DNA from: an uncultured bacterium
GTDB taxonomy: Bacteria; Zixibacteria; MSB-5A5; CAIYYT01
DNA: 64,000 bases
Direction of reading: 5' to 3'
Assembly: GCA_963698225.1 (NCBI GenBank)
Contig: CAVOPW010000004.1
Coordinates: forward strand, 386,959-450,958
Positions 6,930 to 19,904 of the stretch are shown piece by piece. Position 1 is the first letter of the stretch. Each line of letters begins with the position of its first letter. The notes under the pieces were generated by a model. The model ran no database searches. It saw nothing but the letters and a program-made list of their open reading frames with translations, and was not told the DNA's origin. Position numbers and translations under genes: made by a program.

Positions 6930-7343
6930 TCAGGAAATAATGATTTCGGTCGTGATGACGCATTTGTCGCTCAGCGTCGCGCGTACCGAGCAGTATTTCT
7001 CCTGCGACAGTGTAATAGCCTGCTCTACTTTGCTGCGTTCCAGATCAACCCCGGAGAGTACATATGTGATCTTGATGGCTCTGAAGTACTTGGGGTTTTC
7101 CTCCGCCTGTTCGCCAACAACATCAATGCGCAACGACTTCAGCTCTTGCCGCATCTTGTCGAGAATGGCAACAACATCAATTCCGCTACAGGCACCTACC
7201 GCCGCCAACAGATGATCCGTTGGCGATGCATACAGCCCCGCGCCGCCGCCTTTCTTCTTTACGTCCATCCTGAACTTGACGTCTTCACTGTTCGTAGCTT
7301 CAAATTGCTTTGCGCCGATCCACTCGAGAGTTACAGGAAGCAT
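6930..7343 (-). CDS. OsmC/Ohr-family peroxiredoxin-like protein
   Basis: 137 aa with the two conserved Cys contexts (GACSGIDV and EKYCSV) of the OsmC family. Confidence 0.8.
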   Translation of the reverse strand: MLPVTLEWIGAKQFEATNSEDVKFRMDVKKKGGGAGLYASPTDHLLAAVGACSGIDVVAILDKMRQELKSLRIDVVGEQAEENPKYFRAIKITYVLSGVDLERSKVEQAITLSQEKYCSVRATLSDKCVITTEIIIS

Positions 7344-7406: not shown

Positions 7407-7799
7407 TTATGCCAGATGTGCTATGACTTCGATTTCGACCGCAACATCAAGCGGCAGCTTGGCGACCTGGACCGTCGAGCGTGCCGGGAAGTTACCGTCA
7501 AAGTATGAGGCGTACACTTCATTCATCGCCTTGAAGTCGTCCATATTCTTTAGAAATACTGTTGTCTTGATCACATTCTTAAGGCTGGAACCGGCGGCGG
7601 TGAGAATTGCATTGAGATTCTTGAACACCTGATGCGTCTGAGCTACAACATCACCTTCAACCAATTTACCGGTTGCCGGGTCAATTGCCACCTGTCCGGA
7701 TGAAAACACCAGGTTCTTGCATTCCGTCAGAACGACACCTTGTGAATAAGGACCCAGTGCCTTGGGAGCATTATCAGTTGCGACTATTTTCTTGGACAT
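7407..7799 (-). CDS. ridA: RidA-family reactive enamine/imine deaminase
   Basis: The homologous part starts at the internal Met MSKKIVATDNAPKALGPYSQGV (ATG at 7799) and ends with PARSTVQVAKLP...VEIEVIA. The upstream 38 codons of ORF 7407..7913 overlap the SDR gene and show no homology. Confidence 0.85.
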   Translation of the reverse strand: MSKKIVATDNAPKALGPYSQGVVLTECKNLVFSSGQVAIDPATGKLVEGDVVAQTHQVFKNLNAILTAAGSSLKNVIKTTVFLKNMDDFKAMNEVYASYFDGNFPARSTVQVAKLPLDVAVEIEVIAHLA

Positions 7800-7816
7800 G
7801 GATACTCCGTAGATTT

Positions 7817-8570
7817 TTACTGTTTTCTGTGGACCACCATCGCTCCGGCTTGACTCTTCGGAAGGATGATGACTTGGGCTATTTGAATATGTTCCGGGCG
7901 CGTCGCAATCCATTCAATGGTCTCGGCAACATCGTCTCCGGTTAGAGGCTGCAATCCCTGATAAACTTTCTCTGCCCGTTCACTGTCGCCATAGAACCGC
8001 ACCATCGAGAATTCGGTCTCCACCAATCCCGGATCGACAGTTGACACGCGAATCGGCGTGTCAACCAGATCCATCATCATTCCCCGGGTGATGGCGTCAA
8101 CCGCAAACTTGCTCGCGCAATAGACATTGCCGTTCGGGTAGACTTCATGACCGGCTATTGAGCCTACATTAATCACGTGACCGCGACCGCGCGCCACCAT
8201 ACCCGGGACGACTGCACGGCTGACATAGAGCAGGCCCTTGACATTGGTGTCGATCATTTCATCCCAGGCGACAGGATCGCCTTCGTGAAGTTTCAGCAGG
8301 TGCCGGCTCAGTCCGGCGTTGTTCACAAGTAAGTCGATATTTCGCCAGCGTTCCGGCAGAGCGGCAATTGCCGCTTCAACCGCCGCCCGATCGCGCACAT
8401 CCAGCTGGAGCAGATGCGTTTCCACTTTGAGACTCTGCCGTCACTTTTTGCAGCCGTTCGAAACGGCGCGCCGCGAGAATCAAGTCCCAGCCGCTCGCGG
8501 CTAATTTGCGTGCAGTTGCTTCCCCAATGCCGGAGGAGGCACCCGTTATTAGTGCAATTCTACCCATCAA
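7817..8570 (-). CDS. YdfG-like NADP-dependent 3-hydroxy-acid / L-serine / L-allo-threonine dehydrogenase (SDR), single frame disruption near 8427-8440
   Basis: The N-terminal Rossmann part ([16 protein letters not shown]...[13 protein letters not shown]) is ORF 8376..8570. The rest ([15 protein letters not shown]...NNAG...YCASK...RVSTVDPG) is ORF 7817..8425 in another frame. The joined product aligns end to end with the E. coli YdfG pattern. Confidence 0.85.
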
Positions 8571-8579
8571 ATCTCTCCG

Positions 8580-9845
8580 TTACGAAATCACTCCGTGCTT
8601 TTTGCCGACCTTGGTGAAAGCCGCTAATGCCCGATCAATCTGCTCTTGCGTGTGTGCGGCGGACAATTGGACCCGAATGCGGGCAGAACCCTTGGGGACG
8701 ACGGGATAAAAGAAACCAACGACGTAGATGCCTTCATCATATAGGTCGCGAGCCATATTTTGTGAAATCTCGGCATCATTTTCAAACTTGCGGAACAGGA
8801 TTGGCACGATGGGATGAAGGCCCGGCACTATGTCGAAGCCGCGGGCTGTCATTTCGTTGCGGAAGTACTGCGTATTGGCCATCAGCCGTTCGCGTAAGTC
8901 ATCGCTGTTCGACAACAGGTCAAAGGCGGCGATACTTCCGGCGACCAGGGCCGGAGCCAGCGTATTGGAGAAGAGATAGGGCCGGGATTTCTGCCGCAAC
9001 AACTCGATGATCTCGCGCTTGCCGGTCGTAAATCCGCCGGAAGCGCCACCCATTGCCTTGCCGAGCGTCGAAGTAATGATCTCAACGTCGCCCAACACTC
9101 CATTGATTTCTAAAGATCCACGACCCGTCTTTCCCAGGAATCCGGTGGCATGACATTCATCAACCATGACCATCGCATCATACTTCTTCGCCAGTGCCAC
9201 GATTTCCTTCACCTTGGCGATATCGCCGTCCATCGAGAAAACGCCATCGGTGGCAATCAGGATATTGCGGGAGGGTTGCGGCCGGTCCGACAGTCCGGGA
9301 TGATCCCAGATGTCCATGCCTTCCCGGGCGCGGATGAGGTTGCGTTCCAACGAGGCCATATCGGAGTGCTCGTAAATATACCGCTTGGCTTTGCACAGCC
9401 GAATGCCATCGATAATGCTCGCGTGATTCAGGCTGTCGGTGATGATGCAGTCTTCAGCGCCAAGAAGGCTTTCAAACAGCCCGCCATTGGCGTCGAAGCA
9501 GGAGGAGTAGAGGATAGCCTCATCTGTCTGATAGAACTCGGTGATTCTCTTTTCCAGCTGGATATGGAGATCTTGCGTGCCGCAAATGAAACGAACTGAC
9601 GAGAGGCCGAATCCGTAATCATCCAGAGCTTTGTGGGCAGCCGCCAGAATCTGCGGATGATTAGCCAAGCCGAGATAGTTGTTCGCACAGAAGTTGAGAA
9701 CTTCGTCAACTTTTTGCTCCCGGGGCAATGAAACGCTAATGTGGGCGTCTTGCGCCGAGCGGATGATCCGCTCTTCCTTGAAAATCCCGGAGTTGCGGAT
9801 ATTGGACAGTTCTGAACTGAAGTCATATTTGGCACGCTGATACAT
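8580..9845 (-). CDS. kbl: glycine C-acetyltransferase (2-amino-3-ketobutyrate CoA ligase)
   Basis: Near-collinear with E. coli Kbl (GIFKEERII, SSCFDANGGLFESLLGAED, ATDGVFSMDGD, TLGKAMGGASGG with the PLP lysine). Start taken at ATG 9845, preceded by AAGGAG. Has a roughly 14-aa insertion (MDIWDHPGLSDRPQ) relative to E. coli. Confidence 0.88.
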   Translation of the reverse strand: MYQRAKYDFSSELSNIRNSGIFKEERIIRSAQDAHISVSLPREQKVDEVLNFCANNYLGLANHPQILAAAHKALDDYGFGLSSVRFICGTQDLHIQLEKRITEFYQTDEAILYSSCFDANGGLFESLLGAEDCIITDSLNHASIIDGIRLCKAKRYIYEHSDMASLERNLIRAREGMDIWDHPGLSDRPQPSRNILIATDGVFSMDGDIAKVKEIVALAKKYDAMVMVDECHATGFLGKTGRGSLEINGVLGDVEIITSTLGKAMGGASGGFTTGKREIIELLRQKSRPYLFSNTLAPALVAGSIAAFDLLSNSDDLRERLMANTQYFRNEMTARGFDIVPGLHPIVPILFRKFENDAEISQNMARDLYDEGIYVVGFFYPVVPKGSARIRVQLSAAHTQEQIDRALAAFTKVGKKHGVIS

Positions 9846-9866
9846 ACAGTCTCCTTGTTGGGCCAT

Positions 9867-9895
9867 ATTCTACAGCATTGCCCAACGTATGTAAA
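9867..9895 (-). promoter_or_regulatory. sigma-70-type promoter candidate for kbl
   Basis: On the minus strand: TTTACA, 17 nt, TAGAAT, ending about 20 nt upstream of the kbl RBS. Confidence 0.5.
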
Positions 9896-9940
9896 CAGCT
9901 TTTGTGGATCTGCCGGATTGGTAAGAACACCTGATTTTTC

Positions 9941-9990
9941 GCAGCAAAACGACCGGTACCGGAGTACTTTAGGATCCCCGGTACCGGTAC
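9941..9990 (-). terminator. intrinsic terminator after the kbl-like paralog
   Basis: Two copies of the palindrome CCGGTACCGG (9952-9962 and 9978-9988) form an 11-bp stem, followed on the minus strand by CGTTTTGC. Lies 20 nt downstream of the stop at 10008. Confidence 0.6.
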
Positions 9991-10007
9991 GGAAGAGTTA
10001 GTGGCGA

Positions 10008-11255
10008 CTAAAGCCCGTATTTCTCGATAATCTGCTCTTTGGTCTTGTGTAGAATATCGAATTTCTTGCCTACCTTAAGAAAGGCTGCCAAAGCTTTGTC
10101 AAGATGATGCTGATCATGAGCCGCAGACAGCTGTGTGCGAATGCGGGCCTGCCCCTTGGCTACGACGGGGAAGAAGAATCCGACCGCGTAAATGCCCTCT
10201 TGGTAAAGTTCGCGGGCGAAATCCTGCGACAGCTTGGCATTAAACAGCATTACCGGCACGATTGGTGTTTCACCTTCCTTGATGATCAGACCGCCTTCGC
10301 TTAAGCCTTTGCGCCAGAACATGGTGTTCCGTTCCAGCTTATCGCGCCGCTCCGTTGTCTGGCTGATCAGGTCCAAAACCCGACTGGCTCCGACGGCAAC
10401 TACCGGAGGAATCGTGTTCGAGAAAAGATACGGCCGCGCCTTCTGCCGGCACATTTCGACAATCTCACGCCGGCCCGAAACACATCCACCCGATGCACCA
10501 CCCAGGGCCTTGCCGAGTGTTGTCGTGATGATGTCGAGTTTGCCGACAACGCCAAAGTGCTCATGAGTGCCGCGACCGGTCTTGCCAATGAATCCCGACG
10601 CATGCGAGTCATCGAGAAATACCATGGCATTGTACTTCTCGGCCAATTCGACAATCTTGTCGAGCGGAGCCAGATCCCCATCCATGGAAAACGCCCCGTC
10701 GGTGATGATCAGGCGAAAGCGCTTATCCTGATGGAGTTGCAGTTTCTCTTCCAAATGCTCCATGTTGGAGTGCTTGTAGGTATCCTGATGTGCCTTGCAC
10801 AGGCGCATGCCGTCAACGATTGAGGCGTGCACCAATCGGTCGGCAATCATGACATCCTGCTCCGTCAAGACCGCCTCAAAGACGCCGGCGTTGGCGTCCA
10901 TGCACGACGGAAACAATATGGTGTCTTCGGTGCCGAGGAACTTGGTCAGTTTTTCCTCAAGCTGTTTATGGACATCTTGAGTTCCGCAAATGAAGCGGAC
11001 CGATGACATGCCATAGCCGCGTTCATCCAGGCCCTTGCGAGCTGCCGCAATCACTTCCGGATGCGAGGACAAGCCAAGATAGTTATTGGCACACATGTTT
11101 ATCACGCGCTTACGCTGGGAGCCGATTGGGAATTCAACCTCGATCTCCGACCCCTGCGGTGCGCAGATTATGCGTTCTTCTTTGAATATGCCCGCCGAGT
11201 GAATCTCACTTAACTGACTCTGGTAGGCGTCTCGAACTGCTGTAGAAAAAGCCAT
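10008..11255 (-). CDS. Kbl-like alpha-oxoamine synthase, second paralog
   Basis: Same family blocks as kbl (GIFKEERII, FICGTQD, TDGAFSMDGD, TLGKALGGASGG). Start at ATG 11255 (MAFSTAVRDAY...), 7 nt after the carrier-protein stop. Confidence 0.8.
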   Translation of the reverse strand: MAFSTAVRDAYQSQLSEIHSAGIFKEERIICAPQGSEIEVEFPIGSQRKRVINMCANNYLGLSSHPEVIAAARKGLDERGYGMSSVRFICGTQDVHKQLEEKLTKFLGTEDTILFPSCMDANAGVFEAVLTEQDVMIADRLVHASIVDGMRLCKAHQDTYKHSNMEHLEEKLQLHQDKRFRLIITDGAFSMDGDLAPLDKIVELAEKYNAMVFLDDSHASGFIGKTGRGTHEHFGVVGKLDIITTTLGKALGGASGGCVSGRREIVEMCRQKARPYLFSNTIPPVVAVGASRVLDLISQTTERRDKLERNTMFWRKGLSEGGLIIKEGETPIVPVMLFNAKLSQDFARELYQEGIYAVGFFFPVVAKGQARIRTQLSAAHDQHHLDKALAAFLKVGKKFDILHKTKEQIIEKYGL

Positions 11256-11262
11256 ATCACAC

Positions 11263-11511
11263 CTATTCCACGTTAAATTCCTTAAGCAAAGCAACAATCT
11301 TGTTCACCGAATCGAAGGCCTTCGGACTCGCTTTGGCGTCAGGAATCTGAATCTTGTATCTGGTCTCAAGAAACACCTTGAGAGAAACCATCGAGAATGA
11401 ATCGACGATACCGCCGGAAATAAGCGGCGTATCGAAGTCGATCACTTGGTCTTCGTCCTCGAGGTATTCACGTTTTACATAGTCGAGCACAATTTCTTTG
11501 ATGTTAGACAT
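11263..11511 (-). CDS. stand-alone acyl/peptidyl carrier protein (phosphopantetheine-binding)
   Basis: 82 aa with a helical-bundle-like sequence and the candidate attachment site GGIVDSFSMVSL. GAGGAG lies 6 nt upstream of ATG 11511. Sits 8-14 nt after the ligase stop. Confidence 0.6.
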   Translation of the reverse strand: MSNIKEIVLDYVKREYLEDEDQVIDFDTPLISGGIVDSFSMVSLKVFLETRYKIQIPDAKASPKAFDSVNKIVALLKEFNVE

Positions 11512-11525
11512 ACACATCTCCTCGC

Positions 11526-13232
11526 TTACATATCATCTTCCAAAGTTGACGTATCACCAATTTCCTGACCCCATTCTTTGGCACGCAAGAGCCGGCGCAT
11601 GATCTTCCCGCTGCGGGTTTTGGGGAGTGACGGGACGAATTCAATTTCCTGCGGCATTGCCAATGGGGAGAGCTTCTTGCGAATGAAATTCATAATCTCC
11701 AGTTCGAGTTCCTTGGAGGTTTCGAATCCCGGCTTGAGAGTGACGAACGCCTTCACCACTTCCATATTGACCGGATCCGGTTTACCGACGACGGCTGACT
11801 CCGCAACCGCCGCATGCTCCAGCAAGGCGGATTCGATTTCAAACGGACCGACCAGATGTCCCGCCGTGTTGATCACATCATCATCGCGGCCGACAAACCA
11901 GTAGTATCCGTCTTCATCAATGCTGGCCCGATCGCCGCAGATGTACCAGCCGTTAATGAACTTCTTGTCGTACGTTTCCTTATTATTCCAATAGCCGCGG
12001 ATCATCGCCGGCCAGCCGGGCTTGAGCGCGATTAATCCGACAGTGCCCGTGCGCGTGATCGGCTGATGCGTCTTCATATCCAACACAGTTGCGGTAATTC
12101 CCGGGAATGGTCGTCCCATTGAGCCTGGCTTAACCTTCATGCCCGGATAATTCGAGATTACGATGCTTCCGGTTTCGGTTTGCCAGTAAGTATCGTGGAA
12201 AGGCAGACCGAATGCCCGCTGTGACCACAGGACGGCTTCGGCGTTAAGTGGCTCTCCGACCGACGCGAGATGCCGTAAACTGGACATGTCATATTTGCGC
12301 ACGGCTTCTTCGCCCTCTTTCATCAGGGAGCGAATTGCGGTAGGGGCCGAATACCAAACGGTAACCCGGCAGTCTTGCATGAACTGATACCAATTGTCGG
12401 CGCTGAATCCCTCATCGAGCACGCATTGGGTTACACCGCAGGACCATGGACCAATGATACCGTACGACGTTCCGGTCACCCAGCCGGGATCCGCCGTGCA
12501 CCAGTAGATGTCGTCGTCCACCAGATCCAGTGCGTAACGGGTCGTTATGTACTGCGAAATCAGCGAGTAATGAACATGCTGGGCACCCTTCGGTTTTCCG
12601 GTTGTCCCGGAAGTATAATGCAGCACCGAAGGCGTCTCAGCGACCGAAGGATAAACCTCGAACTTGTCGAGCGCCATCGCATCGTTCATGTGCATAGCAA
12701 TCTCGTGTTCCTGCAGCGGCTTGGCACCATCGTCGTCGACAACTATTATCAGCCGCAGGTTCGGCAATTCCGGTAGAATCTTCCGAACTTTGAATACATG
12801 CTTGCGCTGGGTGATGATCGCTGCCGTCTGCGCATCCTCAAGTCTGGTGAAGAGCGACTCGGGACCGAATGCCGAAAACAGCGGCTGGGCAATCGCACCG
12901 AGTTTCAATACACCAAGAAACCCGAAATAGAGCTCGGGAATCTTATCCATGAATAAACAAACTCGCTCGCCGGGCTTGATCCCATGCTCACCGAGAAATG
13001 AGGCAATCCCGTTCGTGAGGCGCCGCATCTGTTCAAAGGAATACTCCCGCCGTTCTCCCGTGAATGACTTCCAGATTAAGGCCGTCTTTTGAGATTTGCC
13101 CAGGCTGCAGATTCGATCACTGCAGTACGCCCCGATGTTGATTAGATTTCCGGGTTGATAATCCAACTCGCGTTCGGCCTGATGCCAACCGAAGGATTTG
13201 TAGGTCTGTTCGAAGTTGCCGATATGAGTCAC
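11526..13232 (-). CDS. AcsA-type AMP-forming acyl/acetyl-CoA synthetase
   Basis: 568 aa, collinear with the B. subtilis AcsA pattern (YTSGTTGKPKG, YWCTADPGWVTGTSYG, WYSAPTAIRSLM, GEPLN, TETG, PKTRSGKIMRR). GTG start. Confidence 0.85.
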   Translation of the reverse strand: MTHIGNFEQTYKSFGWHQAERELDYQPGNLINIGAYCSDRICSLGKSQKTALIWKSFTGERREYSFEQMRRLTNGIASFLGEHGIKPGERVCLFMDKIPELYFGFLGVLKLGAIAQPLFSAFGPESLFTRLEDAQTAAIITQRKHVFKVRKILPELPNLRLIIVVDDDGAKPLQEHEIAMHMNDAMALDKFEVYPSVAETPSVLHYTSGTTGKPKGAQHVHYSLISQYITTRYALDLVDDDIYWCTADPGWVTGTSYGIIGPWSCGVTQCVLDEGFSADNWYQFMQDCRVTVWYSAPTAIRSLMKEGEEAVRKYDMSSLRHLASVGEPLNAEAVLWSQRAFGLPFHDTYWQTETGSIVISNYPGMKVKPGSMGRPFPGITATVLDMKTHQPITRTGTVGLIALKPGWPAMIRGYWNNKETYDKKFINGWYICGDRASIDEDGYYWFVGRDDDVINTAGHLVGPFEIESALLEHAAVAESAVVGKPDPVNMEVVKAFVTLKPGFETSKELELEIMNFIRKKLSPLAMPQEIEFVPSLPKTRSGKIMRRLLRAKEWGQEIGDTSTLEDDM

Positions 13233-13605
13233 GCCCTCGCCTCCAGCATATTAGGGGTAAGATCGCCTTCACATTTTCTTGGGGAATATATTAGCCACTT
13301 CTGATTCCGGCAAGCAAATAAGACGCTTTTATCCCTCTTTCTTGTGAAAAAATTCACTTTTAGGCTTTCTAACAGCCCAAGGATTACCGAATTAGTACTT
13401 ATTGCGGTCAGTAAAGGAACTAAGGCGCCAATTGGCCATCTTGACCACGGCCAGCTTCCGGATATTTCCTGCGTCTGCAGCGGTTCCCACCGGAGGCACC
13501 CTACGCCTTCGGCCCCGGGCTGAACTCATCGAGCGCTCTTGCCGTCAAGAATGCCCAGGCGCCAATATCCTCACAGTCAGCATTCAGCAGGAGAATCGAT
13601 GTCTC

Positions 13606-15076: not shown

Positions 15077-15388
15077 ATGTCACATGACTACTACGTTTAC
15101 ATAATGATGAATCGTTCACGGACGCTCTACACCGGAATGACCAACAACCTCTTGCGACGCGTGTTTGAGCATCAGCATTTACTCGTTGAGGGCTTCACAA
15201 AGCGGTACAAAATCACGCAGTTGGCCTATTTCGAGCATACTACGGATGTTCGTGCAGCAATATTAAGGGAAAAGCAAATCAAAGGGTGGACGCGAGCCAA
15301 GAAGATTGCACTCATTGAATCGGTGAATCCACACTGGCTTGACCTGAGCGGGGGCTGGTATGACTCAACAGACCCTCCACCTGCGTAG
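15077..15388 (+). CDS. GIY-YIG nuclease family protein (small stand-alone URI-domain protein)
   Basis: 103 aa. YYVYIM...LYTGMTNNL..R..EH (the GIY-YIG core) and a REKQIKGW block. Confidence 0.8.
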   Translation: MSHDYYVYIMMNRSRTLYTGMTNNLLRRVFEHQHLLVEGFTKRYKITQLAYFEHTTDVRAAILREKQIKGWTRAKKIALIESVNPHWLDLSGGWYDSTDPPPA

Positions 15389-15874: not shown

Positions 15875-16921
15875 CTACTCCATCATCAGCACGACCTTCG
15901 CCGAAGGCTGACTGCCGGTCGCAAACATGTCGACCGCCTCAAGGAATTTCTTGAACGGATAGCGATGCGTAATCACCGGGCGCGGATCAACCATGCCGCC
16001 GTCCAGAAGCGCCTGCATCTGATACCAGGTCTCGAACATCTTGCGGCCATTGATACCGATCACGGTCGCGCCTTTGAAGATGATCGCCTTGTTGACATCG
16101 ATCATCACCGCATCGGGCGGAATGCCGAACATCACCAGCGTGCCGGCTTTGCGCAGAATCTCAAATCCGGTCTCGACTGATTTCTGGTTGCCCGCCATAT
16201 CCAGCACGACATCGACGCCGCCGGAGGTTTCATCCCAGATGCGCGTTTTGAAATCCTTGTCGTTGGCGACATTGATCGAAACATGCGCGCCCATCTGCTT
16301 GCAGATATCGAGATTGAAATCCTGCATGCCGATATTGTAGATTCGCTCCGCACCGACGGCCTTGGCGATGCCGCACGAAAATGCCGCCGTCGGACCGTCG
16401 CCGATGATGGCGATTCGCTTGGTCGAAACATTGGCCGACATGGTGGTATAGACTGCGTTGCCGAAGGGTTCATGAATCGAGGCGATCGCCGGGTCCATCC
16501 CCTTGTCGATCTTCCAGCAGACGATTTCCGGCAAAGCGACATACTCCGCAAAAATGCCGTCAGTGTCGACGCCGAGAATCACCAGATTGTCGCAGATATG
16601 CATATTGCCCATGCGGCACTGTTTGCAGACGCCGCAGGGGATATGCGATTCGGCGGCGATGAAATCACCGAGCTTGAGACCGCGGATATTCTTGCCGACT
16701 TCGACAACTTCGCCGCAACATTCGTGGCCGAAGATCAACGGCGGCTTGAGGCGCCCCTGTGCCCACTTGTCCCAATTGTAGATGTGCTTGTCGGTACCGC
16801 AGATCGAAGACGCCTTTGTCTTGATCAGTACCTGGTTGTCGTTTATCTGGGGGATCTTGACTTCACGAAAATCGGCTCCCGCCGCCCGTTCCGGCTTTAC
16901 ACCGGCCCACATAGTCTCCAC
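15875..16921 (-). CDS. tdh: L-threonine 3-dehydrogenase (zinc-dependent MDR family)
   Basis: 348 aa. ICGTDKHIYNWDKWA, GHECCGEVVEVG and a CGVCKQCR structural zinc site. Rossmann motif AIIGDGP. Confidence 0.9.
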   Translation of the reverse strand: METMWAGVKPERAAGADFREVKIPQINDNQVLIKTKASSICGTDKHIYNWDKWAQGRLKPPLIFGHECCGEVVEVGKNIRGLKLGDFIAAESHIPCGVCKQCRMGNMHICDNLVILGVDTDGIFAEYVALPEIVCWKIDKGMDPAIASIHEPFGNAVYTTMSANVSTKRIAIIGDGPTAAFSCGIAKAVGAERIYNIGMQDFNLDICKQMGAHVSINVANDKDFKTRIWDETSGGVDVVLDMAGNQKSVETGFEILRKAGTLVMFGIPPDAVMIDVNKAIIFKGATVIGINGRKMFETWYQMQALLDGGMVDPRPVITHRYPFKKFLEAVDMFATGSQPSAKVVLMME

Positions 16922-19819: not shown

Positions 19820-19904
19820 GGAGAGTTGGCAGAGCGGTCGATTGCGGCGGTCTTGAAAACCGTTGTCCTGCAAGGGACCGGGGGTTCGAATCCCTCACTC
19901 TCCG
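19820..19904 (+). tRNA. tRNA-Ser (anticodon UGA), class II with a long variable arm
   Basis: Acceptor GGAGAGT pairs with ACTCTCC. Anticodon stem GCGGT/ACCGT with loop CTTGAAA. 15-nt variable arm. T-arm GGGGG-TTCGAAT-CCCTC. Discriminator G. No encoded CCA. Confidence 0.9.

Follow-up and report, generated by a model that had tools for sequence, protein, structure and literature searches.

A carrier protein between two apparently ordinary enzymes

Why should the gene of a small carrier protein lie between the genes of an acetate--CoA ligase and a glycine C-acetyltransferase? The question is raised by a locus in a 64,000-nucleotide stretch of DNA from an uncultured Zixibacteria bacterium (contig CAVOPW010000004.1), which was analyzed as a whole and is hereafter called the window. 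Three consecutive genes on its minus strand encode an AcsA-type ligase (11526 to 13232; 568 amino acids [aa], GTG start, with the Pfam domains AMP-binding and AMP-binding_C), an 82-aa protein (11263 to 11511) with a GGIVDSFS motif in which Ser38 is the proposed phosphopantetheine site, and a 415-aa alpha-oxoamine synthase of the Kbl type (10008 to 11255), which we refer to as AOS2. The open reading frames (ORFs) and their tight packing, proposed in an earlier interpretation made from the letters alone (the sequence-only reading), are both confirmed, with 14 nucleotides (nt) between the ligase stop and the carrier gene and 7 nt between the carrier gene and the AOS2 start. In public records the three proteins are named as an acetate--CoA ligase, an acyl carrier protein, and a glycine C-acetyltransferase.

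We propose, with a probability of roughly 60%, that the triad carries out a self-contained, carrier-protein-dependent Kbl reaction, in which acetyl bound to an acyl carrier protein (acetyl-ACP) takes the place of acetyl-coenzyme A (acetyl-CoA). If acetyl-ACP replaces acetyl-CoA in the Kbl reaction, it follows that the aminoketone would be 2-amino-3-ketobutyrate itself.

Conservation of the triad

Relatives of the carrier protein number in the thousands; the 120 top matches are 73 to 100% identical to it and, where named, are labeled Zixibacteria, Ignavibacteria, or Chrysiogenales. In a scan of one genome per species, relatives occurred in at least 579 species genomes. The 80 loci that were kept cover Ignavibacteria, Zixibacteria, Aminicenantes/Acidobacteriota, Chrysiogenales, Calditrichaceae, KSB1, Delongbacteria, and Bacteroidota. 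When 82 non-redundant loci were anchored on the carrier gene, an alpha-oxoamine synthase gene adjoined it in 72 and a ligase gene in 64, and the order ligase, carrier, AOS2-type gene was kept almost everywhere. Across these loci the ligase is about 75% and the AOS2-type protein 75 to 84% identical to its counterpart in the window, and the carrier retains 65 to 80% identity across lineages. AOS2 is better conserved between lineages than the canonical-type glycine C-acetyltransferase encoded next to it in the window (KBL1), for which the corresponding identity is about 70%.

To avoid circularity, a second search was anchored on AOS2, with the back-translated AOS2-specific motif MIADRLVHASI as the query against metagenome contigs. 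The carrier gene directly precedes AOS2 in 96 of the 98 loci with upstream room, and a ligase gene accompanies the pair in 39 of the 43 loci with more room. Downstream of AOS2, KBL1 was seen in no more than 4 of 48 metagenome loci (about 35 of 82 among the carrier-anchored genome loci). It follows that the triad is the core of the module, whereas the kbl, short-chain dehydrogenase/reductase (SDR), and ridA genes that accompany it in the window are a lineage-specific addition. The synteny of ligase, carrier, and Kbl-like genes to which the sequence-only reading had drawn attention is therefore strongly conserved in both the carrier- and the AOS2-anchored searches, and its recurrence in hundreds of genomes places the arrangement far beyond chance. 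The "2-amino-3-ketobutyrate hub" of kbl, SDR, and ridA to which that reading had attached the triad does not extend in the same way, the SDR and RidA genes being found in the closest relatives only.

Some loci show other neighbors. In the complete genome CP070707.1 (L004/L010, 6006 to 10320), genes for a thioredoxin-like protein and a GNAT acetyltransferase follow the ligase-carrier pair. In two further loci (L052 and L056), the succession carrier-AOS2-KBL1 is directly preceded by ORFs that, by eye and from their N termini, are putatively the flavoprotein and Fe-S subunits of a succinate dehydrogenase or fumarate reductase, and no ligase occurs within 7 kb.

The small protein as a carrier

A Pfam scan of the 82-aa protein returned no match at an E value of 0.001 or lower, and at relaxed thresholds PP-binding reached 17 bits, the cutoff being 20.8. 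Matches to ten NCBIfam carrier-protein models stay under the respective cutoffs, among them weak ones to the ACP and DltC types. In particular, the AcpP model TIGR00517 gives 21.5 bits against a cutoff of 70 and, on sequence grounds, the protein is distinct from the housekeeping AcpP of fatty acid synthesis. The best NCBIfam match, the ACP of the ornithine-lipid OlsHI system (54 bits against a cutoff of 130), was rejected as an identification, since that protein belongs to an unrelated long-chain N-acylation pathway.

The AlphaFold2 model built from 20 homologues (mean predicted local distance difference test score of 83.7) has three long helices and places Asp37-Ser38 at the N terminus of helix 2. 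Searched with Foldseek against the PDB, the model retrieved carrier proteins only, PigG being the best match, with template modeling (TM) scores of 0.80 to 0.82, followed by DltC, PltL, and glycyl-carrier proteins, with TM scores of 0.7 to 0.74. These top matches are stand-alone carriers that are loaded by separate adenylating enzymes. The predicted fold, in which helix 2 begins at Ser38, supports the suggestion of the sequence-only reading that the small protein is an ACP-type carrier, with Ser38 as its putative modifiable site.

A ligase with an acetate-type pocket

The ligase exceeds the cutoff of the NCBIfam acetate--CoA ligase model PRK04319 (769.1 bits against 729), and its best match in the PDB is 9g79, a 572-aa enzyme of the AcsA type. 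The acyl pocket is of the acetate type: in the alignment, V252, T253, V325, and W350 correspond to V310, T311, V386, and W414 of Escherichia coli Acs, and the same V/T/V/W set is found in 9g79. Furthermore, Lys543 occupies the place of the catalytic Lys609 of Acs. Because all four residues of the acetate pocket and the catalytic lysine are identical to those of Acs, acetate is the likeliest acid.

At other sites the ligase departs from Acs. The position of Acs Arg526 is taken by Leu460, a leucine in 56 of 56 aligned members of the clade, Met replaces Arg580, and a conserved basic QKKH..KVR stretch occurs where Acs binds the phosphates of CoA; Arg584, which belongs to the CoA site of Acs, is present. 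The equivalent of Arg526 is conserved in carrier-loading adenylation enzymes too. In AcsMt, where this arginine stabilizes the thioester-forming state, mutation of the equivalent residue cripples the CoA step (PMC10455477). When 72 representatives of related AcsA-like clusters were compared, 25 had leucine at the same position, and this residue is therefore a weak indicator of the acyl acceptor; since the change is not specific to the clade, we take the replacement of Arg526 by Leu neither as proof that the use of CoA has been lost nor as evidence of a new acceptor.

Three observations concern the relatives of the ligase. In about one-third of the AcsA-like cluster representatives the A8 motif GxR(L/V)G is replaced by GHL(V/I)(G/S), and many of these have a V/T/V/F pocket; they make up a sizeable and apparently undescribed subgroup, whose acceptor may differ. 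One locus (L039, 6430 to 8154) contains a tandem ligase paralogue of the same clade, with Leu526, Met580, and the basic stretch, in which the pocket residue Trp414 is replaced by Leu, and this sequence suggests that the paralogue serves a larger acid. Another relative of the AcsA-like ligases (P0153, 949 aa) is split by an intein with a LAGLIDADG domain.

An intact Kbl active site in AOS2

On TIGR01822, the model for glycine C-acetyltransferase, AOS2 reaches 569.8 bits (cutoff 493), whereas it remains below the cutoff of the BioF model (358 bits against 426) and scores lower still on the models for serine palmitoyltransferase (SPT; 223 to 306 bits against cutoffs of 500 to 670), 5-aminolevulinate synthase (ALAS), and CqsA. 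Its identity to E. coli Kbl is 51% and that to KBL1 is 52%. The Kbl active site is intact: in the numbering of E. coli Kbl, His136, Ser185, Asp210, His213, Thr241, Lys244, Arg368, and Val79 are invariant among all 65 sequences of the AOS2 clade. Among these residues, Val79 is a valine in all Kbl enzymes and is replaced in SPT, 8-amino-7-oxononanoate synthase, and ALAS; it gates or limits the amino acid site (PMC11906848).

Different from E. coli Kbl and the KBL1 clade, which share the motif LNHAS, AOS2 sequences feature DRL(V/I)HAS, owing to the replacements A133R and N135V/I (65 of 65 sequences each) beside the histidine that stacks on pyridoxal phosphate. Further changes of the clade are Y253C, S109P, L298R, and a conserved C-terminal tail, ILHKTKQEIIDxYG, and the ADRL-HAS motif is common to AOS2 and E. 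coli BioF. These changes could correspond to a docking site for the carrier or to a tuning of specificity. In three loci (L076, 11565 to 12824; L085, 2666 to 3919; L168, 8626 to 9831), the gene after AOS2 encodes an AOS2-like paralogue and not a KBL1-type protein; it is 58% identical, has the C-terminal tail, and keeps Asn135.

Phosphopantetheinyl transferase and threonine dehydrogenase genes attached to the module

A frameshifted, chimeric gene call (P0243), in which the N terminus of an AcpS protein is joined to a ligase of the same clade, prompted a search for AcpS. In 29 of the 93 loci with room for it, the ligase gene is immediately preceded, on the same strand, by a gene for an AcpS-type phosphopantetheinyl transferase, and in a few loci such a gene stands directly before carrier-AOS2 or AOS2; three examples exceed the cutoff of the acpS model TIGR00516. 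The 64 kb of the window contain no AcpS homologue. A first clustering of the ORFs of the 82 loci (at least 70 aa, 30% identity, 60% coverage) had found no recurrent neighbor except tdh, and had missed the short and divergent acpS genes.

The tdh gene, encoding a zinc-dependent alcohol dehydrogenase of the threonine dehydrogenase type, immediately precedes the module, in the same orientation, in four loci (L044, L113, L161, and L205), none of which has a second kbl within the locus. Two of the encoded proteins (L161 and L205) pass both curated Tdh cutoffs and one (L044) passes one of them; for the fourth (L113), where the gene order is tdh-acpS-ligase-carrier-AOS2, the best family is Tdh. Since tdh has been recruited into the operon where no other kbl is nearby, 2-amino-3-ketobutyrate is indicated as the shared intermediate. 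A tdh gene is also near the module in the window and in Ignavibacteria loci, but the coupling is not universal. In the window, the gene noted in the sequence-only reading was recognized by its profile matches as that of a Tdh-like zinc alcohol dehydrogenase (15875 to 16921, minus strand), 2.6 kb upstream of the ligase, with Tdh models as best families (TIGR00692, 383 bits; PRK05396, 376.5 bits against a cutoff of 380).

Proposed reaction and the points that weigh against it

The gene context argues for a carrier-protein thioester as the partner of AOS2, and we infer that the acceptor of the ligase is the carrier rather than CoA and that the acyl-carrier serves AOS2 as substrate. In the proposed sequence of events, the AcpS-type transferase, encoded just upstream in many relatives, would convert the carrier to its holo form; the AcsA-type ligase would then adenylate acetate and load the 82-aa carrier with the acetyl group, on its phosphopantetheine arm. 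AOS2 would interconvert acetyl-S-carrier and glycine with 2-amino-3-ketobutyrate and holo-carrier, and threonine dehydrogenase would tie 2-amino-3-ketobutyrate to threonine.

The pathway could possibly run in either of two directions. In the catabolic option, threonine would yield glycine and acetyl-carrier, and the latter would be converted to acetate, possibly with ATP formed from AMP and pyrophosphate by reversal of the ligase. In the anabolic option, acetate, ATP, and glycine would give 2-amino-3-ketobutyrate and then threonine, by way of a private thioester pool kept far from equilibrium. That the carrier serves in this manner, either to recover ATP from acetyl-carrier, AMP, and pyrophosphate during threonine cleavage or, in the mirror case, to supply an ATP-driven private acetyl pool towards threonine, is a tentative proposal that we regard as rather unlikely.

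Several points weigh against a carrier-dependent Kbl reaction. By the curated cutoffs of hidden Markov models (HMMs), the ligase is an ordinary acetate--CoA ligase and AOS2 an ordinary glycine C-acetyltransferase, and both may still use CoA; the spread of Leu526 among related AcsA-like clusters leaves that residue with little to say about the acceptor. The ligase is absent within 7 to 10 kb in some loci, and CP070707.1 has the ligase and the carrier with no AOS2 within 10 kb. Moreover, the replacements A133R and N135V/I, beside the histidine that stacks on the cofactor, could alter the choice of substrate. Finally, no clear physiological rationale can be given for placing a C2 unit on a carrier, the conservation of ATP and the private pool being hypotheses only.

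Alternative explanations

The alternative that survives best, which we consider unlikely, is that a short acyl-carrier is condensed with alanine, serine, or threonine, or that the acyl group is not acetyl, so that another aminoketone is formed; an aminoketone other than 2-amino-3-ketobutyrate was the product suggested by the sequence-only reading. In its favor are A133R, N135V/I, Y253C, S109P, and the C-terminal tail, present in the 65 AOS2 sequences and in neither KBL1 nor E. coli Kbl, and the ADRL-HAS motif, which AOS2 has in common with an alanine-using enzyme, E. coli BioF. The tandem ligase paralogue in one locus, with Leu for Trp414, implies a larger pocket, and a Kbl/BioF-type enzyme of Thermus takes glycine, alanine, and serine (PMC11906848). 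On the other hand, the acetate pocket of the ligase is unaltered, Val79 is kept in all 65 AOS2 sequences (PMC11906848), and the score of AOS2 on the Kbl HMM far exceeds those on the BioF, SPT, ALAS, and CqsA models. Because of the acetate pocket, Val79, and the true tdh genes recruited into the operon where no other kbl is nearby, such a product is less likely, and the earlier proposal is disfavored.

It is decidedly unlikely that the module consists of an ordinary acetyl-CoA synthetase and a CoA-dependent Kbl paralogue, with the carrier as a conserved neighbor that serves an unrelated process. Both enzymes do pass the NCBI curated cutoffs and are named accordingly in public records, an acs gene beside kbl would be metabolically sensible by itself, and Arg584 of the Acs CoA site is retained. 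The position of the carrier gene argues against it, between the two enzyme genes with gaps of 7 to 14 nt and before AOS2 in 96 of 98 independently found loci, as does the attachment of AcpS to the module in about one-third of the loci. The carrier, moreover, has no other recurrent partner in the 82 clustered loci, its 65 to 80% identity across lineages is as expected when a protein docks several partners, and the canonical KBL1 often coexists right by AOS2.

Loading of another small acid, such as propionate, glycolate, or glycine, which would lead to a different product of C-C bond formation or to an aminoacyl-carrier, appears improbable. The nearest carrier structures are indeed aminoacyl carriers (PigG, DltC, PltL, and Gly-carrier proteins), and Acs enzymes accept propionate weakly; however, the four pocket residues are identical to those of Acs, and the NCBIfam models for propionate--CoA ligase and MbcS remain far below the acetate ligase model. 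A lipid pathway with AOS2 as an Spt- or cysteate-acyltransferase-like user of long-chain acyl-ACP, in keeping with the combination of ligase, ACP, and alpha-oxoamine synthase in bacterial sphingolipid synthesis (PMC9386255), is extremely improbable and was discarded on the basis of the SPT model scores and of a ligase pocket that is acetate sized and closed by Trp, and no reductase or N-acyltransferase genes recur near the 82 clustered loci.

Surroundings of the module in the window

Downstream of AOS2, a hairpin followed by UUUU (9944 to 9991, stem at about 9950 to 9991, minus strand) may act as a terminator or an attenuator. The sequence-only reading had described a hairpin with a U tract that closes the unit; the hairpin is significant (-27.6 kcal/mol, z = -3.2, with none of 200 shuffles folding equally well), whereas the U tract comprises only four U, and because of this short T run the element is absent from the list produced by the terminator scan. 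The promoter-like sequence TTTACA-17-TAGAAT, located before KBL1 (9867 to 9895, minus strand) as that reading had proposed, has 10 of 12 consensus matches and is the top promoter-like match of the region, in which the number of promoter-like sites is not above that expected from shuffling. A weaker one, TTGCCG-17-TATATT (13285 to 13313, minus strand; 9 of 12), lies 5' of the ligase and is a consensus match only. An Rfam scan of the whole window found no riboswitch or leader before the ligase, its sole match being a tRNA (19820 to 19904, plus strand).

The genes that follow on the minus strand form a second operon, composed of kbl, the YdfG-like SDR gene, ridA, and osmC. KBL1 (8580 to 9845, 421 aa) scores 620 bits on TIGR01822 and is 57% identical to E. 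coli Kbl; its clade has an insertion of about 20 residues behind position 171 of E. coli Kbl. Trp, Gly, Leu, and Pro are conserved within the insertion, which both E. coli Kbl and AOS2 lack. Of the three genes that the sequence-only reading had placed downstream of the triad, kbl and ridA are in place, while the SDR gene (7817 to 8570) is split into two frames, an N-terminal part at 8376 to 8570 and a C-terminal part at 7817 to 8425 (PRK10538, 215 bits), by one additional base within 8380 to 8480 relative to the loci L091 and L007. The SDR is intact, with 249 aa, in the sister contigs L091 and L092, and since these contigs are frameshifted elsewhere (RidA in L091, AOS2 in L092), the additional base is likely an error of long-read assembly and not the mark of a pseudogene. 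A RidA family deaminase (7407 to 7799; TIGR00004, 174 bits against a cutoff of 106) and OsmC (6930 to 7343) complete the operon. Between tdh and the module, a 103-aa ORF on the plus strand (15077 to 15388) appears GIY-YIG-like by eye.

Implications for metabolic reconstruction

In automatic annotation the ligase and AOS2 come out as an acetate--CoA ligase and a glycine C-acetyltransferase of the ordinary kind, and the module is therefore invisible in metabolic reconstructions. It is widespread, masked by routine annotation, and mechanistically close to a known principle. The lineages concerned, among them Ignavibacteria, Zixibacteria, Aminicenantes, Chrysiogenales, Calditrichia, KSB1, and Delongbacteria, are mostly uncultured. 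Should the carrier replace CoA, models of how lineages that are abundant in sediment and wastewater metabolize threonine, glycine, and acetate, and of how much energy they gain, would be wrong at one step, and a natural alpha-oxoamine synthase that uses acetyl-ACP would be available for biocatalysis. Should the ligase also work in reverse, energy-limited and mostly uncultured sediment bacteria would gain a substrate-level phosphorylation, in which threonine gives glycine, acetate, and ATP. In either direction, the module would represent the first carrier-protein-dependent Kbl and the first acetate:carrier-protein ligase of the AcsA type.

Comparison with known systems

In searches of a paper library, no description was found in which acetyl-ACP, an AcsA-type ligase, tdh, or these lineages are combined with Kbl or another alpha-oxoamine synthase; the sequence-only reading likewise was aware of no described Kbl-type system of this architecture. 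The Tdh-Kbl pathway of E. coli, encoded by the kbl-tdh operon, resembles the module in that AOS2 is 51% identical to Kbl and tdh is linked in several lineages. However, canonical Kbl works with free CoA and acetyl-CoA and has no carrier, ligase, or AcpS, and AOS2 differs from it in the residues that flank the histidine and in the C-terminal tail. Likewise, the ligase resembles the short acetyl-CoA synthetases of the AcsA type (PRK04319; 9g79) in its HMM score above the cutoff and in the identical pocket and catalytic lysine; different from Acs, it has an adjoining carrier gene, Leu at the position of Arg526, Met at that of Arg580, and the QKKH..KVR stretch, and its proposed acceptor is the carrier.

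SxtA, from saxitoxin biosynthesis, and BioF acting on pimeloyl-ACP are alpha-oxoamine synthases that take the acyl group from a carrier thioester, and SxtA uses C2 or C3 acyl-ACP. SxtA is a multidomain enzyme similar to polyketide synthases and condenses the acyl group with arginine, whereas BioF joins alanine and a C7 diacid. To our knowledge, an acetate ligase partner and a link to tdh are lacking in both. SxtA is among the enzymes named in PMC11906848.

The AasR/AcpR/SPT system of Caulobacter crescentus and other Rhodobacteria resembles the module in being a set of three genes, for an ANL ligase, a small specialized ACP, and an alpha-oxoamine synthase, that are found together wherever the synthase is present (PMC9386255), and the analogy to an ACP-served bacterial Spt drawn in the sequence-only reading proves apt. 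Caulobacter AasR is labeled an acyl-CoA synthetase but is unable to use CoA as acceptor, its own ACP being the sole one that it loads; the SPT prefers acyl-ACP (PMC9386255). That system joins a long-chain fatty acid to serine in a decarboxylative condensation that yields a sphingolipid precursor, whereas the module has an acetate pocket and a Kbl-type synthase, and its partner is a threonine dehydrogenase of central metabolism and not of lipid synthesis. A carrier-dependent Kbl reaction, if confirmed, would extend the AasR/AcpR principle from lipid synthesis to central C2 and amino acid metabolism; AasR/AcpR/SPT is the closest characterized analogue of the module, which would be its C2/Kbl counterpart.

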